Origin: a virus
Lineage: Duplodnaviria > Caudoviricetes
IMG/VR virus record: IMGVR_UViG_3300032295_002982
Coordinates: 1-64,000 of that record
Length of the DNA: 64,000 nucleotides
Reading direction: 5' to 3' (one strand)
The position numbers and the translations under genes were made by a program. Below, piece by piece: positions 4,231 through 25,794 of this stretch (its first letter is position 1; each line of letters opens with the position of its first letter). Below the pieces are notes generated by a model. That model was not told where the DNA came from. It was given only the letters and a program-made list of their open reading frames with translations, and did no database searches.

Positions 4231-4419
4231 TTGACAGAATCACACAAGAGAACCGTAGCAAGAGCAGTATGTTGGCGAATTATTGCTACCTTGGTAACTG
4301 CAATCTGGGCCGGATGGTCGGGAGCCATCATGGCCAACATTGTGTTGACAGTGTTGCACTACGTGCATGAACGAGCCTGGCTGAAAATCAACTGGGGCAA
4401 ACAAAACACAGATACATAG
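4231..4419 (+). CDS. DUF2061 membrane protein
   Basis: ESHKRTVARAVCWRII ... YVHERAW signature. Confidence 0.8.
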   Translation: MTESHKRTVARAVCWRIIATLVTAIWAGWSGAIMANIVLTVLHYVHERAWLKINWGKQNTDT

Positions 4420-4439: not shown

Positions 4440-5639
4440 GTGGCAAAAATATTATGTGTATTATACGATGATCCAGTGAATGGATATCCAACCAGCTATG
4501 CTAGGGACACCATTCCAACCATTTCAGGTTATCCTGATGGTCAGACTGCACCAACACCGCATGCAATTGATTTCACTCCCGGTGAGTTGTTAGGAAGTGT
4601 TACAGGTGCTTTAGGCCTGCGTGATTGGTTGGCCCGCGAAGGTCATGAACTAGTGGTCACCAGCGACAAGGATGGCCCTGACAGTGAATTTGAACGACAC
4701 TTACACGATGCGGAAGTTGTGATCAGTCAGCCGTTTTGGCCTGCCTATCTCACTGCCGAACGCATTGCAAAAGCACCAAAACTAAAATTGGCATTAACTG
4801 CCGGAATTGGTTCAGACCACGTTGACCTACAGGCCGCCATGGAACGTGGTATTACTGTGGCTGAAATCACTTACTGCAACAGCAACAGTGTAGCTGAACA
4901 CATTGTGATGCAGATGCTGAGTCTGGTGAGAAACTATATTCCCAGTTACAAACAAGTTGTGGAAGGCGGTTGGAACATTGCCGACTGTGTGAGTCGCAGC
5001 TATGACATCGAAGGCATGCATGTAGGGACAGTGGCAGCAGGACGTATTGGCCTGCGAGCGCTGCGACTGTTGAAACCGTTTGGTGTTCACCTGCATTACT
5101 ATGATCGCCATCGCTTGCCAGAGTCAGTGGAACAAGAACTCAATCTCACCTGGCACGACACTGTGGCAGATATGTTGCCGCACCTGGACATTGTAACCAT
5201 AAACTGCCCATTGCATCCTGAAACCGAACACTTGTTCAATGATGCCATGATTGCGCGAATGAAACGAGGCAGCTACATTGTGAACACAGCACGTGGCAAG
5301 ATCTGTGATCGCGATGCCATTGCTAGAGCATTGGAGTCAGGTCAACTGGCCGGTTATGCAGGAGATGTATGGTTCCCACAACCAGCACCACAGAATCATC
5401 CCTGGAGAAGCATGCCCTGGCATGGCATGACACCGCACATCAGTGGTACCAGTCTCAGTGCCCAGACACGTTATGCAGCCGGTGTGCGTGAAGTGTTGGA
5501 ATGCTGGTTCGAAGGTCGTCCGTTGCGCAATGAATATCTGGTGGTGCAGGGCGGGCAATTGGCCGGAGTTGGTGCTCACAGCTACAGCAAAGGCAACGCC
5601 ACAGGTGGCAGTGAAGAAGCAGCCAAGTTCCGACGTTGA
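4440..5639 (+). CDS. fdh: NAD-dependent formate dehydrogenase
   Basis: AKILCVLYDDP start, QPFWPAYLT, AGIGSDHVDL, VAAGRIG, NTARG, GDVWFPQP, MTPHISGTSLSAQTRYAAG; AGGAGG RBS. Confidence 0.95.
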   Translation: MAKILCVLYDDPVNGYPTSYARDTIPTISGYPDGQTAPTPHAIDFTPGELLGSVTGALGLRDWLAREGHELVVTSDKDGPDSEFERHLHDAEVVISQPFWPAYLTAERIAKAPKLKLALTAGIGSDHVDLQAAMERGITVAEITYCNSNSVAEHIVMQMLSLVRNYIPSYKQVVEGGWNIADCVSRSYDIEGMHVGTVAAGRIGLRALRLLKPFGVHLHYYDRHRLPESVEQELNLTWHDTVADMLPHLDIVTINCPLHPETEHLFNDAMIARMKRGSYIVNTARGKICDRDAIARALESGQLAGYAGDVWFPQPAPQNHPWRSMPWHGMTPHISGTSLSAQTRYAAGVREVLECWFEGRPLRNEYLVVQGGQLAGVGAHSYSKGNATGGSEEAAKFRR

Positions 5640-5644
5640 TTTGG

Positions 5645-5652
5645 TATAAATA
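5645..5652 (+). promoter_or_regulatory. T4-type late promoter motif
   Basis: TATAAATA. TAAATA cores also precede genes at about 2357, 11411, 15440 and 23837. Confidence 0.5.
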
Positions 5653-5656
5653 ACTG

Positions 5657-5685
5657 TTGACATTACATTGTTTGTATTGTAAAAT
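5657..5685 (+). promoter_or_regulatory. sigma70-type promoter (leaderless start predicted at ATG 5692)
   Basis: TTGACA-17-TAAAAT; the A of ATG lies 7 nt after the -10. Confidence 0.85.
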
Positions 5686-5691
5686 AACATC

Positions 5692-5781
5692 ATGAACGCA
5701 ACAACAGCCTGGTTATCAATAGAACGCACAACACTGTGTGTGACCATCTATGAGCGTGATCCGGGCACAGGGCCTGCGTGA
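5692..5781 (+). CDS. Putative attenuator leader peptide 1 (29 aa)
   Basis: MNATTAWLSIERNTLCVTIYERDPGTGPA*. Its last codons overlap an antiterminator strand. Confidence 0.65.
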   Translation: MNATTAWLSIERTTLCVTIYERDPGTGPA

Positions 5782-5806
5782 TTGTTTGAGAATTCAACAG
5801 TTAACG

Positions 5807-5839
5807 AGCCCTGGACCAAAAATCCAGGGCTTTTCATTT
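5807..5839 (+). terminator. Attenuator terminator 1
   Basis: AGCCCTGGA-CCAAAAA-TCCAGGGCT-TTTCATTT. Confidence 0.8.
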
Positions 5840-5850
5840 CAGGGAGAGCA

Positions 5851-6015
5851 ATGACAGAATCAGACATAGCAAAACTAAACGAACGTATTGAACGACAAAA
5901 ATTTGTGTTGGACAAAGAATTATATCAGCAGTTGATTCGTGCCAAACTGGCAAGATTGAACAGTTGGTTTGGTGTTACAAAAACAGCAACAGAGTTGCTA
6001 AAATCGCAAGATTGA
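5851..6015 (+). CDS. Hypothetical protein (54 aa)
   Basis: GGGAG RBS, MTESDIAKLNERIERQK... Confidence 0.6.
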   Translation: MTESDIAKLNERIERQKFVLDKELYQQLIRAKLARLNSWFGVTKTATELLKSQD

Positions 6016-6040
6016 CCAATATTGAATTGTGTAGTAACAT
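6012..6040 (+). promoter_or_regulatory. sigma70-type promoter of the tRNA-Tyr-like gene
   Basis: TTGACC-17-TAACAT. Confidence 0.55.
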
Positions 6041-6048
6041 AGAGTCAA

Positions 6049-6137
6049 GGGTGTTGCCCCGGTCAGCGGTCTGTAAAACCGTCGGCATTGTCAAGATCGG
6101 AAGTTGCCTCGTGGAGCGTTACCATCAGCACCCACCA
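6049..6137 (+). tRNA. Non-canonical tRNA-Tyr(GTA)-like gene, D-armless, 8/4 fold
   Basis: Acceptor GGGTGTTG/CAGCACCC-A-CCA; anticodon arm GCGGT-CTGTAAA-ACCGT; long variable arm; 4-bp T stem GTGG/CCAT. Confidence 0.7.
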
Positions 6138-6145
6138 TGTATGAC

Positions 6146-6174
6146 TTGACTGAAATGATCAAGTCCGCTATACT
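6146..6174 (+). promoter_or_regulatory. sigma70-type promoter
   Basis: TTGACT-17-TATACT. Confidence 0.8.
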
Positions 6175-6225
6175 AGACGGTATAGCAAGTAACAAAGCAG
6201 TATTCTTTAACAATTTGACATAGAT

Positions 6226-6300
6226 GCACCCATCGTCTAGCGGTGAGGACACTGCCCTTTCAAGGCAGGAACACGGGTTCGAATCCCGTTGGGTGTACCA
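6226..6300 (+). tRNA. trnE: tRNA-Glu(TTC)
   Basis: Cloverleaf, loop CT-TTC-AA, GTTCGAATCC, encoded CCA. Confidence 0.95.
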
Positions 6301-6382
6301 TATTGAAGCACATTTTGATGCCTATTAGGTTGTGGAGTTGATCGCCTACAATACGGTGCGAGATGAGTGTGTTTCAATATGG
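6298..6382 (+). other. Inter-RNA spacer hairpin, copy A
   Basis: CCATATTGAAGCACAT / GTGTGTTTCAATATGG, 16 bp with 2 GU pairs. Confidence 0.7.
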
Positions 6383-6597
6383 TTTCCGGTTACTACTTTC
6401 CTGAAAGTAGCGTGTGGCGACGATAATGATCCCGGTGGCTATGGCACCGTCAGCGAGATATAGACTCTGCCTCGGCGGTGTCTCCGGTTTCTCAGACAGC
6501 ATAGCAGCGTGGACACTACGTGACACAATGTCAATTAGTGTTCGGACAGGGCAACAACTCCAGCTTGGGGGCGACCGTGGAAAAGCGTGGCCCGAGC
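6381..6597 (+). ncRNA. Structured ncRNA, copy A (possibly manA/wcaG-like motif class)
   Basis: CTACTTT/AAAGTAG hairpin; shares GGACAGGGCRACAACTC plus a covarying terminal stem with 8847-9043. Confidence 0.55.
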
Positions 6598-6601
6598 AAT
6601 T

Positions 6602-6789
6602 TTAGGTGTATTGTTTTGGAAAAAATCTGTGTGACCAGGTTAATGCACTCTCACTGTACTGGACGTCGACTCTCAAGGTACACGAGTTGCTGCACACGAA
6701 AAGTCCAGGACGCTGGAACACAATAAGTGTGTCGCGATAAAAGCAAACGGTGGTGGGTATCGCCATCCATAACAAGACAATACACCTAA
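6602..6789 (+). ncRNA. Unknown structured ncRNA
   Basis: 16-bp closing stem TTAGGTGTATTGTTTT/AAGACAATACACCTAA, nested internal stems, possible pseudoknot. Confidence 0.55.
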
Positions 6790-6794
6790 GATAT

Positions 6795-6872
6795 ACCGCT
6801 TTAGCTCACTTGGATTAGAGCACCGTGCTACGAACGCGGGGGTAGGGAGTTCGAGTCTCTCAGGCGGTACCA
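6795..6872 (+). tRNA. trnR: tRNA-Arg(ACG)
   Basis: Cloverleaf, CT-ACG-AA, CCA. Confidence 0.95.
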
Positions 6873-6873
6873 T

Positions 6874-6958
6874 GCCTCGGTGGTGAAATAGGTATACACG
6901 ACGGACTTAAAATCCGTTTCCGCAAGGAGTGCCGGTTCAATTCCGGCTCGAGGCACCA
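6874..6958 (+). tRNA. trnL: tRNA-Leu(TAA)
   Basis: Class II cloverleaf, CT-TAA-AA, CCA. Confidence 0.95.
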
Positions 6959-6964
6959 AGTATT

Positions 6965-7042
6965 GGCACGTTAGCATAGTTGGCCTAATGCGCTGGCCTG
7001 TCACGCCAGAGACCACGGGTTCGAATCCCGTACGTGTCGCCA
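6965..7042 (+). tRNA. trnD: tRNA-Asp(GTC)
   Basis: Cloverleaf, CT-GTC-AC, G73, CCA. Confidence 0.95.
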
Positions 7043-7063
7043 TTTTTAAGGATAATTATTGAC

Positions 7064-7918
7064 ATGAAAATATCTACACACTCCAACGGTTGGACACAGT
7101 TTGTTGAAGATCTTGATCTTCGCGAAGCCACTGACGAACAGGCACAGACCATAGGTCGTTTGTTGGCCGAACACACCGTGGTTGTGATACGTGGTCAAGA
7201 CTTGACTCCTAGGCAGGAAGTTGAATTTTGTAAAAAAATTGGCAATCTTGAAAGTCTAGAACGCAGAAAGAATGACAAAGGCTTTGACGGATTCATTGTG
7301 CCGGACAGCGACTATCATGTGATGCGAGTTACAGGCGAACTAGATGAACATGGTAGACCTGGCTTGTTTGGTCATGTGAGTGATCTTGACTGGCATGCCA
7401 ATCAAACTGCCAACGAGTGGCGACATCCCATTGTGTGGCTGTATGGTGTCAAAGGCACTGCGGGCAGCCGCACCAGTTGGTTAAACAACATCATGAGCTA
7501 TCAAGATTTGCCACCGGAACTACAGGAAGCCTACAAAGAAATTCGCATGATCAATGGCTACAAGCAAGGCGCCTACAGTGAAGATCACTTTGGCAAACCC
7601 ATTGACATCAATTTTACCTACAAGCCCCGACTGGTACACACAAACTTGGCAGGCAAGACCGGATTGTTTTTTCCCTTCCTGCAGATTCATCAGATCGATG
7701 GCATGACCGAAGATCAAAGTCGTGAATTTATAGAAATGCTGCGAGATCATGTGCTACAAGAAAAATACATGTACCATCATGACTGGCAAGATGGCGACAT
7801 TGTGATCGCTGAACAGTGGTTGGGCATTCACAAACGGTGGAGATGCGAAACCATAGCCACTCGCAGGCTGCATAGAATCTGTTTGGACTTTGCTCATTGT
7901 GGCTTTGACTTGGCTTGA
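7064..7918 (+). CDS. TauD/TfdA-family Fe(II)/2OG dioxygenase
   Basis: HTVVVIRGQDLTP, DWHAN, TSWLN, WQDGDIVI..QW..IH.R; start set at ATG 7064 after AAGGA. Confidence 0.8.
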   Translation: MKISTHSNGWTQFVEDLDLREATDEQAQTIGRLLAEHTVVVIRGQDLTPRQEVEFCKKIGNLESLERRKNDKGFDGFIVPDSDYHVMRVTGELDEHGRPGLFGHVSDLDWHANQTANEWRHPIVWLYGVKGTAGSRTSWLNNIMSYQDLPPELQEAYKEIRMINGYKQGAYSEDHFGKPIDINFTYKPRLVHTNLAGKTGLFFPFLQIHQIDGMTEDQSREFIEMLRDHVLQEKYMYHHDWQDGDIVIAEQWLGIHKRWRCETIATRRLHRICLDFAHCGFDLA

Positions 7919-8654
7919 TTACGCAACGACCAAGGTTTGGCTGCTGCATGTAGCCACTGCGGTCACGGTGTTTTTTATGCCACCTGTGTGGATACTGGTG
8001 GCAATTGTGTTTTACTGGGCAGCATCGTCTATTTTTCAATTGATATTTCATGACTGGATCTGTCATGAATATTGTAGGCCGCGCAACATCTGGATAGAGT
8101 GTGCGATGCTGATGCTGTTTTACGCACATGACAACAATGTAAGAAACAAAAAGAACTATCATGTGTTTCATCATCGTCAATGGCATCATCCTGACCGTGA
8201 TCCTACCTATCGCAAACTACAAGGTGTGAGCCTTGGGCGCTATATCATGGGCCTACACAATCGTCTTGATCTTGGCATTCCCAACAAAGAATTCAGTCTG
8301 CTAGAGCGCAGCAGCCTGGTGCGTTGGTTAGATCCTCACAGTCGCTGGCTTTACTTTGCATGGATTGTGGGTTGTGCCTTGGTGTTGCCATGGACATGGT
8401 TTGTGGTTGTTTGTGTCTGGTATCCTTGGTTGCTGCATGTGGCTTTGTGTTATCATGATTGGCACCTTCATGGACCACAACGTAGACCGGATCGCAATTG
8501 GATGAGCTTGTTGTTTGCACACGGTGCCTGGCATCATGCACATCACGAATCATGGCGTCAAGAACACTATGGACCCGGTGTGTGGCGATGGATCAATCCG
8601 GCCTGGTATGTGCGACACCTGTTGTTTAGAAAAAACTCTGCTCCGGTAGTTTAA
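7890..8654 (+). CDS. Membrane fatty-acid desaturase/hydroxylase-like protein
   Basis: Transmembrane segments plus His boxes HDWICH, HVFHH, HDWHLH, HHAHH; start uncertain; stop lies inside the next tRNA. Confidence 0.7.
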   Translation: MLIVALTWLDYATTKVWLLHVATAVTVFFMPPVWILVAIVFYWAASSIFQLIFHDWICHEYCRPRNIWIECAMLMLFYAHDNNVRNKKNYHVFHHRQWHHPDRDPTYRKLQGVSLGRYIMGLHNRLDLGIPNKEFSLLERSSLVRWLDPHSRWLYFAWIVGCALVLPWTWFVVVCVWYPWLLHVALCYHDWHLHGPQRRPDRNWMSLLFAHGAWHHAHHESWRQEHYGPGVWRWINPAWYVRHLLFRKNSAPVV

Positions 8655-8730
8655 TGGTAAAACAGCGGATTTATATCCCGTAGCGTCAGATAAACGGCCA
8701 ATACAGGTTCAAATCCTGTCCGGAGTACCA
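8640..8730 (+). tRNA. tRNA with TAT anticodon (nominal Ile) and long class-II variable arm
   Basis: GCTCCGG/CCGGAGT-A-CCA; loop TT-TAT-AT with A31-C39 mismatch; V-arm CGT-CAGATAA-ACG. Confidence 0.8.
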
Positions 8731-8735
8731 CTCAG

Positions 8736-8763
8736 TTGACAATAAATAGAATTCCTGTATAAT
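8736..8763 (+). promoter_or_regulatory. sigma70-type promoter
   Basis: TTGACA-16-TATAAT. Confidence 0.75.
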
Positions 8764-8772
8764 AGCATCACA

Positions 8773-8846
8773 GCCCTTTTAGTTAAATGGTATAACAGTT
8801 GATTTGTAATCATCTATTGGCAGTTCGATTCTGTCAAAGGGCACCA
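8773..8846 (+). tRNA. trnT: tRNA-Thr(TGT)
   Basis: Cloverleaf, TT-TGT-AA, CCA. Confidence 0.93.
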
Positions 8847-9043: not shown

Positions 9044-9071
9044 ACTTATTTCAAAATGGTAAATAAAACTG

Positions 9072-9100
9072 TTGACAATAAATTTGTGATGCTATATACT
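9072..9100 (+). promoter_or_regulatory. sigma70-type promoter (leaderless start predicted at ATG 9107)
   Basis: TTGACA-17-TATACT; ATG 7 nt after the -10. Confidence 0.85.
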
Positions 9101-9106
9101 ATTGAC

Positions 9107-9211
9107 ATGATGACGTTGCTGAAAAACTTGCTCAAGCCCAATAACTGCCCAGCACTAGCCTGGTCACGCGGCTTGACCATGGGCAATTTTAGTCAAGGAG
9201 TGGGGTCTTAG
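9107..9211 (+). CDS. Putative attenuator leader peptide 2 (34 aa)
   Basis: MMTLLKNLLKPNNCPALAWSRGLTMGNFSQGVGS*. The stop codon lies in the antiterminator 5' strand. Confidence 0.65.
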   Translation: MMTLLKNLLKPNNCPALAWSRGLTMGNFSQGVGS

Positions 9212-9248
9212 AATAACTGAATCACAAAACAGATTCAAATATTCAAAG

Positions 9249-9282
9249 ACCCTGGAAGTAAAAACTCCAGGGTTTTTTGTTT
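9249..9282 (+). terminator. Attenuator terminator 2
   Basis: ACCCTGGA-AGTAAAAAC-TCCAGGGT-TTTTTGTTT. Confidence 0.88.
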
Positions 9283-9476
9283 CAAAGTGTGAGGCAACGA
9301 GGGCCTATCCCGCACTCAAAACATGGGACAACGGGCGGTACCGAGGATGAAACTGCTGGCGGTAACAGCATAGTAAAATTCGGTATGTGTAAGTGCGTTC
9401 TTGCGAGTGCATTTACACATACACATTCACATGAATGTGTGAGTTTGATTGTTGTTGAGAGCATCAAGCAAGACAG

Positions 9477-9551
9477 GTCCGGGTAGCTCAGAGGCAGAGC
9501 ACTGTGTTGATAACGCAGGGGTCAAGATATCGTAATTCTTCCTGGACACCA
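9477..9551 (+). tRNA. trnI: tRNA-Ile(GAT) with atypical T-loop
   Basis: TT-GAT-AA anticodon loop; T-arm AAGAT-ATCGTAA-TTCTT. Confidence 0.8.
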
Positions 9552-25072: not shown

Positions 25073-25101
25073 TTGACCACAGTCAATATCTGTGTTACAA
25101 T
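25073..25101 (+). promoter_or_regulatory. sigma70-type promoter of the thyX operon
   Basis: TTGACC-17-TACAAT. Confidence 0.8.
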
Positions 25102-25107
25102 AATCCT

Positions 25108-25794
25108 ATGCAAGTACGTTTACTATCTTATAGCCAACCCACATCAGAGTTTGCGGCGCAAGGCATTGCTGATGCGCAGGAACTCATTGCCTACTGCGCA
25201 AGAGTCAGCAATCCCAGCAATCAGCTCAATACAGAGACATCCCAACGTCTGATCCGATACCTGATCAAACATCAACATTGGTCGCCCTTGGAGATGGTGA
25301 GTGCATGTCTGGAGATCACTACCACTCGAGACATTGCTAGACAAATTCTACGACATCGCAGTTTCAGTTTTCAAGAATTCAGTCAACGCTATGCGGATCC
25401 CACACAGGATCTTGATTTTGTCACACGCGAAGCTCGACTACAAGACACTGCCAATAGACAAAACAGTATAGAACTAGACCTTGCCCATGACCTTGATGCT
25501 AGAGAACTCAATCGCGAATGGTATCAGCGTCAGTTGGATGTGATCAAGGCAGCACGTGAAACCTATACCTGGGCTGTAAACAACGGCATTGCCAAAGAGC
25601 AGGCTCGTGCAGTGCTGCCCGAAGGACTCATGAGCAGTCGTTTGTACATGAATGGCACTCTACGTAGCTGGATACATTTCATAGAACTGCGCAGTGGCAA
25701 TGGCACCCAACGCGAACATCAGCAAGTGGCTGTGGCCTGTGCCAATGTCATTGCAGCAATTTTTCCCATGGCTGTTGAGTTGACTTCGGCCTAA
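25108..25794 (+). CDS. thyX: FAD-dependent thymidylate synthase
   Basis: CARVSN, HWSPLE, RQILRHRSFSFQEFSQRY, EQARAVLP, LRSWIHFIELR. Confidence 0.97.
   Translation: MQVRLLSYSQPTSEFAAQGIADAQELIAYCARVSNPSNQLNTETSQRLIRYLIKHQHWSPLEMVSACLEITTTRDIARQILRHRSFSFQEFSQRYADPTQDLDFVTREARLQDTANRQNSIELDLAHDLDARELNREWYQRQLDVIKAARETYTWAVNNGIAKEQARAVLPEGLMSSRLYMNGTLRSWIHFIELRSGNGTQREHQQVAVACANVIAAIFPMAVELTSA

Follow-up and report, generated by a model that had tools for sequence, protein, structure and literature searches.

A probable leader-peptide attenuator, divergent within its family, ahead of a tRNA block in a giant freshwater phage

Our analysis suggests that the element at positions 5657-5839 (unit 1) is a transcription attenuator of the ribosome-mediated, leader-peptide kind, a divergent representative of a phage family found at the head of tRNA blocks. 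We favour this reading with moderate confidence. The window, that is, the whole stretch analysed, covers the initial 64 kb of a viral contig of 84 kb from IMG/VR; an estimated completeness of only ~21% at 84 kb points to a giant phage. It carries 27 tRNA genes, all on the plus strand between 6226 and 15165, and about ten near-consensus sigma-70 promoters. Unit 1 sits between a gene for an NAD-dependent formate dehydrogenase (FDH), whose stop codon lies at 5639, and the first tRNA gene, and a companion with the same architecture, unit 2, lies farther downstream. The features on which the argument rests are as follows.

5657-5685, plus strand: sigma-70-type promoter, TTGACA (5657-5662), 17-nt spacer, TAAAAT (5680-5685), matching the consensus at 11 of 12 positions
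5692-5781, plus strand: leader ORF of 29 codons ending in TGA (5779-5781), peptide MNATTAWLSIERTTLCVTIYERDPGTGPA, with one Trp
5696-5716, plus strand: region 1, ACGCA (5696-5700) and GCCTGGTTAT (5707-5716, holding the Trp codon), from the MFE helix list
5756-5779, plus strand: region 2, GTGA/CCGGGC (5756-5766), predicted to pair with region 1, followed by CAGGGC (5768-5773) and CGT (5777-5779), the antiterminator 5′ arm
5780-5802, plus strand: inner hairpin, GATTGTT.GA / TC AACAGTT, beginning within the stop codon and fitting both folds
5804-5813, plus strand: region 3, ACG.GCCCTG, the antiterminator 3′ arm, overlapping the terminator 5′ arm
5806-5839, plus strand: intrinsic terminator with a 10-bp stem, a 7-nt loop and a T tract
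5851-6015, plus strand: 54-aa gene with an SD, GGAG (5843-5846), and without a promoter of its own
6012-6040 and 6146-6174, plus strand: two internal promoter-like sites, matching the consensus at 9 of 12 and 10 of 12 positions
6226-8846, plus strand: tRNA block 1, Glu-ttc, Arg-acg, Leu-taa, Asp-gtc, Ile-tat and Thr-tgt, with two ORFs interspersed
9072-9282, plus strand: unit 2, heading tRNA block 2, with a leaderless leader of 34 codons, an antiterminator at 9202-9253 that is strong, and a terminator

The promoter, the ATG at 5692 and the 29-aa ORF with its single Trp, all listed by a first-pass annotation of this DNA, are present in the sequence, and the same promoter type drives about ten other units in the window. 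The ATG begins 6 bases after the -10 element, so that its A is the seventh base and the predicted +1, and no SD precedes it; as judged from the sequence, transcription would start at A5692 and the ORF would be leaderless. The terminator is built from GAGCCCTGGA (5806-5815), the loop CCAAAAA and TCCAGGGCTT (5823-5832), followed by TTTTCATTT. Folding without its 3′ arm gives an MFE structure in which CAGGGC (5768-5773) is paired with GCCCTG (5808-5813) and CGT (5777-5779) with ACG (5804-5806) around the hairpin at 5780-5802, which is the competing pairing that the first-pass annotation had proposed. In the MFE fold of the full transcript, the 5′ part of the ORF (ACGCA, 5696-5700, and GCCTGG, 5707-5712, with the Trp codon inside) pairs with 5756-5779, and this single-sequence prediction would make region 1 an anti-antiterminator acting on region 2. 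A pairing of the 5′ end with region 2 also came out of RNAalifold for one subfamily, but is invariant there and without covariation, and we do not rely on it.

The layout of unit 1 recurs widely. A terminator-pattern scan of IMG/VR returned 97 stretches, four of which looked unrelated (L076, L097, L120 and L123), and the plan is preserved in some 70 distinct units on IMG/VR contigs; we define it here by a sigma-70 promoter, an ATG at or near +1 or behind a short 5′ UTR, and an ORF of ~25-60 codons. We extracted 47 distinct leaderless units, with the ATG 6-9 nt after the -10 element, a range that includes the 6-nt gap of unit 1, and ORFs of 29-53 codons; some 24 further variants have a 5′ UTR of 10-15 nt or an AG-rich, SD-like one of ~60 nt and keep the ORF. 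The stop codon lies 26-41 nt ahead of the terminator stem in all 47 units, and 30 nt before CCCTGGA in unit 1. Substitutions between related leaders fall evenly over the three codon positions (127/120/138) while the frame stays open, as expected if translation of the leader matters and the peptide does not, and selection at the peptide level was rejected on this ground. Every unit for which downstream sequence is available precedes a tRNA array on the same strand, and in 25 of 37 no strong promoter intervenes ahead of the first tRNA; unit 1 belongs to the other 12. Rfam holds no family for these leader units, unit 1 has no match there at gathering or E-value thresholds, and our literature search found no paper on attenuation of phage tRNA genes. 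In 596 Gb of bacterial genomes the terminator pattern matched 101 times; three of the matches are family members, all on MAG contigs whose inconsistent taxonomy precludes a host call.

With the terminator 3′ arm withheld, the antiterminator forms in all but one of the 47 units, through pairing between CCC in the 5′ arm and an upstream GGG, and the stop codon lies 6-33 nt inside the helix; at 11 nt, unit 1 falls in the main class. In a 22-sequence alignment, 88% of cells are paired as compared with 26-48% when the partner is slid, and 23 cells have changed on both sides against 7.4 in shuffles (0/500), with TAG and TAA stops covarying with CTA and TTA. An arm-swap test on 62 units, including variants with five other terminator sequences, gave -17.6 kcal/mol for cognate duplexes and -13.1 kcal/mol for non-cognate ones (0/2000). 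A covariance model trained on 22 members from other phages, the window's own copies left out, matches the 84-kb record at two places only: 9191-9282, with 68.5 bits, and 5755-5839, with 38.2 bits and E = 3e-7. The latter score is within the range of other accepted members, at its low end, and the alignment of the model at 5755-5839 includes several non-canonical pairs. On these sequence grounds unit 1 is a member of a real element family of phages, as had been supposed from two copies alone, and homologues keep the overlap of leader stop and antiterminator, with covariation.

Membership also bears on one alternative, a chance arrangement in which the terminator simply closes the FDH operon, and the promoter and ORF in front of it are unrelated and there by coincidence. 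No other terminator stands between the FDH stop codon (5639) and 5806, as that reading would have it, and FDH relatives elsewhere have quite different downstream DNA, that of L002-L009 being unrelated to the window's. We nevertheless regard coincidence as extremely improbable, since unit 1 matches the covariance model, has the geometry of the family and is followed by a homologue of the family's small ORF. Among the FDH relatives, genes 96% identical to the window's occur in other phage contexts (L002-L004), where they are followed by tmRNA-like sequence with the tag ...ANDEVFALAA; a separate locus, L038:8496-8776, is a permuted-tmRNA match in Rfam. The motif TATAAATA at 5645 was considered as a T4-type late promoter and discarded, its two copies in the window being the chance level.

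As the first-pass annotation had it, unit 1 repeats the architecture of unit 2 at 9072-9282. Both units contain, as had been noted, the CCCTGGA...TCCAGGG stem and AGCCTGGT, in frame and encoding Ala-Trp. The antiterminator of unit 2 is well above chance (z = -4.4 against shuffles) and its two folds are balanced. Clear homologues of unit 2 are carried by L010 and L013, which were reached through the neighbouring TauD-like gene, and one unit 2 homologue combines a different terminator (ACCCCGG) with the matching change in the upstream arm (GGGGTGT). A second phage contig, L047, likewise has two attenuator units about 4 kb apart (4267-4351 and 156-249, both on the minus strand).

What the leaders would sense, in our reading, is the speed of decoding. 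Leaders hold on average 18.6 distinct amino acids in 42 residues, and 17 of 47 hold all 20, against a mean of 16.7-17.0 in controls (0/1000); Cys is present in 87% of leaders where 44% is expected and Trp in 98% where 60% is expected, and the presence of Met, His and Lys is raised as well. For 92.6% of the tRNA species encoded within 3 kb downstream, the leader holds a readable codon; the figure is 69.6% when windows of equal length are taken from long ORFs at that locus (0/1000), and 86% for the blocks of other units (0/5000), permutation values that are optimistic because family members are related to each other. Within the window, leader 1, with TTA, ATA, five ACA codons, GAA/GAG, CGC/CGT and GAT, offers codons for all six tRNAs of block 1 (p = 0.023), including TTA for Leu-taa and ATA for Ile-tat, and for 12 of the 20 of block 2; leader 2 matches 17 of the 20 tRNAs of block 2 (p = 0.004) and three of the six of block 1. 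Phe, His, Lys and Gln are missing from leader 1 and their tRNAs occur in block 2 only, while Asp, Glu and Tyr are missing from leader 2, and block 2 serves none of them. Amino-acid diversity as such is not above control in the two leaders of the window or in their union: leader 1 has 16 of 20 amino acids in 29 residues, a value reached by 33% of control windows and short of the family mean. A correspondence between 'Y-E-R-D' in leader 1 and the order of the tRNA genes was dropped, since p is 0.03 when a Tyr-like element is counted and 0.29 when it is not, and nothing comparable exists in unit 2.

The matching to whole tRNA sets speaks against the first-pass proposal that the Ala-Trp codons are the sensed signal, and with it against a Trp-specific attenuator in which this single codon pair would sense charged tRNA-Trp as in the trp operon. 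Such a mechanism would account for the single Trp at the aligned position in 44 of 47 leaders, for the location of the unit 1 Trp codon within the strand that pairs with region 2, and for the finding that tRNA-Trp is among the leading two tRNAs downstream in 8 of 37 units. We consider it improbable, however: there is one Trp and no run, the Trp codon stands anywhere from 12 to 32 codons before the stop, and the overall frequency of Trp is not raised (2.5% against 2.2%), the rise in its presence being shared with Cys, Met, His and Lys. Variants lacking Trp exist (L103, L078, L079, L264 and L279), tRNA-Trp is absent from the block behind unit 1, and unit 1, with tRNA genes downstream where the trp operon leader has genes of Trp biosynthesis, has no match to the Rfam Trp_leader family at E <= 5. 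Leader content instead tracks the downstream tRNA set.

A strong promoter with a terminator ~150 nt downstream, set before a long gene block, also resembles lambda PR′/6S RNA, and a small conserved protein follows many of the units. The terminator might accordingly be overridden by a phage protein or a cis-acting RNA that modifies RNA polymerase, in the manner of lambda Q at PR′-tR′ or of the HK022 put type, the ORF being incidental. We judge this very improbable, since it leaves unexplained an open frame with an unconstrained peptide, the retention of the ORF in the variants that have a 5′ UTR, a stop codon kept within a helix that covaries and is the alternative to the terminator, and the matching of codons to tRNAs; a conserved ORF and a competing helix are not features of a lambda-type Q/PR′-tR′ unit.

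The more serious challenge concerns unit 1 itself, rather than the family. In the full transcript its terminator fold (-49.6 kcal/mol) is favoured by 5.2 kcal/mol over the fold with the antiterminator forced (-44.4 kcal/mol), and it is still the MFE structure when ribosome footprints are masked. The antiterminator has the family-typical geometry, 6 + 3 bp plus the inner hairpin, yet taken alone is no better than chance against dinucleotide shuffles (z = -0.86); the leader as a whole (153 nt) is more stable than its shuffles (z = -3.2). Because the 54-aa protein occurs in near-identical contigs only, unit 1 has no covariation of its own: across 10 such contigs there is a single SNP, at 5817 in the terminator loop. 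Unit 1 could on this account be a decayed or constitutive copy, a promoter and an efficient terminator with no switching. It would yield a terminated RNA of ~148 nt, possibly an sRNA, the 29-aa peptide, or both, and expression of the 54-aa gene would depend on leakage. The 5 kcal/mol bias towards the terminator, the chance-level antiterminator, a model score in the lowest range and the internal promoters that serve the tRNAs would all fit, and there is precedent in attenuator-derived sRNAs and active leader peptides, as in rnTrpL/peTrpL (PMC6614838, PMC7298713). We think this reading unlikely, if less so than the others, in view of the preserved stop-to-terminator geometry (11 nt from the antiterminator base to the stop, as in the main class), the identity of unit 1 across samples and the 6/6 codon match to block 1; furthermore, the 54-aa gene has an SD and no promoter, and so needs read-through. 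We retain unit 1 as a shorter, divergent attenuator that looks biased towards termination and is probably a tight switch within its family.

In the mechanism that we propose for the attenuator, host RNA polymerase would start at the A of the ATG at 5692, and a ribosome would load on the leaderless 5′ AUG. Were translation fast, the ribosome would arrive at the end of the ORF (final codons and stop, 5768-5781) with the polymerase still on 5806-5839; sitting on the stop region, it would cover the antiterminator 5′ arm, the terminator would form and the transcript would end near 5839. Were decoding slow, the lagging ribosome would also hold region 1 off region 2, leaving CAGGGC..CGT to pair with ACG.GCCCTG, so that no terminator would form and transcription would read through into the 54-aa gene and block 1. 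Because leader 1 has a codon for each block 1 tRNA, including TTA and ATA, the switch would report the decoding of exactly those codons, and the block is probably transcribed more when ribosomes decode them slowly. The outcome would be feedback control by the phage of its own tRNA supply. A broader extension, in which every tRNA block is controlled by a leader of its own, spelled in the codons that the block reads, so that the phage would sense decoding block by block and switch on the tRNAs in short supply, a feedback loop read by the ribosome and a sensor for counter-defence in one, we put forward only tentatively.

The immediate surroundings indicate how much such a switch might govern. The direct cargo of unit 1 appears to be the 54-aa gene, and read-through would add to the transcription of block 1, which promoters at 6012, 6146 and 8736 supply independently of the unit; those at 6012 and 6146 can, as the first-pass annotation had anticipated, partly bypass the switch. 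Its description of the gene context was borne out for the 54-aa gene and the tRNA block, and not for a tRNA-Tyr-like gene, which neither ARAGORN nor Rfam calls at ~6049-6139 and whose fold is no better than shuffles. The element at 6049-6139 does have a 7-bp acceptor-like stem ending in ACCA and a CUGUAAA loop (Tyr anticodon GTA), and the array is otherwise without a tRNA-Tyr.

The first feature downstream of many units is a gene for a small protein of ~52 aa; at many, a conserved structured RNA that we call RNA X comes in addition or in its place. The 54-aa protein belongs to the small conserved family, with the motif L-T-x-E-Q...L-I-x-x-K-L-x-R-A, which follows switches in at least 18 phages; it has no match in Pfam, PHROG or PDB, and homologues of the window's copy come from near-identical contigs only. 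In alignment A3 the family members, ~52 aa and probably helical, show the motif as V-L-T-x-E-Q...L-I-x-x-K-L-x-R-A and are encoded between the terminator and RNA X. RNA X (~110-190 nt; alignment A4, for example L095:8217-8383 and L066:1944-2112) lies directly after 38 of 47 units and comprises a hairpin whose AACG.G loop is invariant, a GGGCGG that is likewise invariant, and then a covarying helix enclosing GGATGA...GTAAAAT; it has no match in Rfam. In the window it is present after unit 2 (9283-9400) and absent after unit 1.

Several further observations were made in the course of these searches. A pattern of the promoter plus ATGATGAC was unspecific as a search for the family, matching many ordinary leaderless phage genes. 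The string TTGACA-17-TAYAAT-7-ATGATGAC occurs in more than 120 viral contigs (loci L235-L344) against ~3 expected, and many of the ATGATGAC sites head ordinary genes, such as those for MMTKRKRR.D..H.IY proteins; among these phages, leaderless starts with 'MMT' seem to be frequent. In the window, TTGACC-17-TACAAT at 25073-25110, with the ATG of a long ORF 6 nt later, is another likely leaderless gene. A GOLLD RNA (213 bits) lies at L102:3393-3857, ~250 nt upstream of that phage's attenuator unit. In the Gemmataceae MAGs L184, L206 and L226, a leaderless, Ile/Val-rich short ORF (MANSVQALIPIVIVVAQGVR...) ends ~34 nt before a terminator and looks like a leaderless branched-chain amino-acid attenuator.

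As we read them, the phage units share with the multivalent leader-peptide attenuators of enterobacterial amino-acid operons (thrL and ilvL, with trpL as the classic example) a short translated leader whose stop lies ~60-70 nt before the end of an intrinsic terminator, mutually exclusive antiterminator and terminator folds between which the position of the ribosome chooses, and the sampling of more than one type of codon. In contrast to those systems, they would control tRNA genes rather than biosynthetic enzymes and are predicted to be leaderless. Their control codons do not occur in runs; each of many tRNAs is represented by one codon or a few. Neither sequence similarity nor Rfam links the two groups. 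Nor do the units resemble T-box riboswitches, for which Rfam gives no match in 5600-6240 or 9050-9480, the regions of units 1 and 2. We know of no homology between the phage units and the whiB7 uORF attenuator of mycobacteria. In that system, stalling on the uORF leads to antitermination when any of many amino acids, tRNAs or synthetases runs short, and what is sensed depends on the composition of the uORF, making it a general sensor of translation stress (PMC10274678). Unlike the phage units, whose output would be decoding machinery, whiB7 is bacterial, its uORF is enriched in Ala and it controls a transcription factor (PMC10274678). Leaderless leader peptides are themselves not new: 14 have been predicted in Deinococcus deserti (PMC4007540), and polycysteine leaderless sORFs are described in mycobacteria (bioRxiv 10.1101/834739). 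There, too, the sensor ORF starts at the 5′ AUG of the transcript, but these leaders respond to a single amino acid and regulate genes for synthetases or biosynthesis; those of mycobacteria act on translation rather than on a terminator.

The proposed mechanism speaks to the question of why large phages carry tRNA arrays and how these are controlled. If it holds, phages would regulate their tRNA supply by sensing decoding directly, and attenuation would extend from amino-acid metabolism to the translation apparatus itself, in a compact element of ~150 nt. The shortage to which such a switch would respond could stem from host defence by anticodon nucleases or from a mismatch in codon usage, and the two units of this phage, matched to different blocks, offer a natural experiment on how a tRNA supply may be governed by the ribosomes that draw on it.
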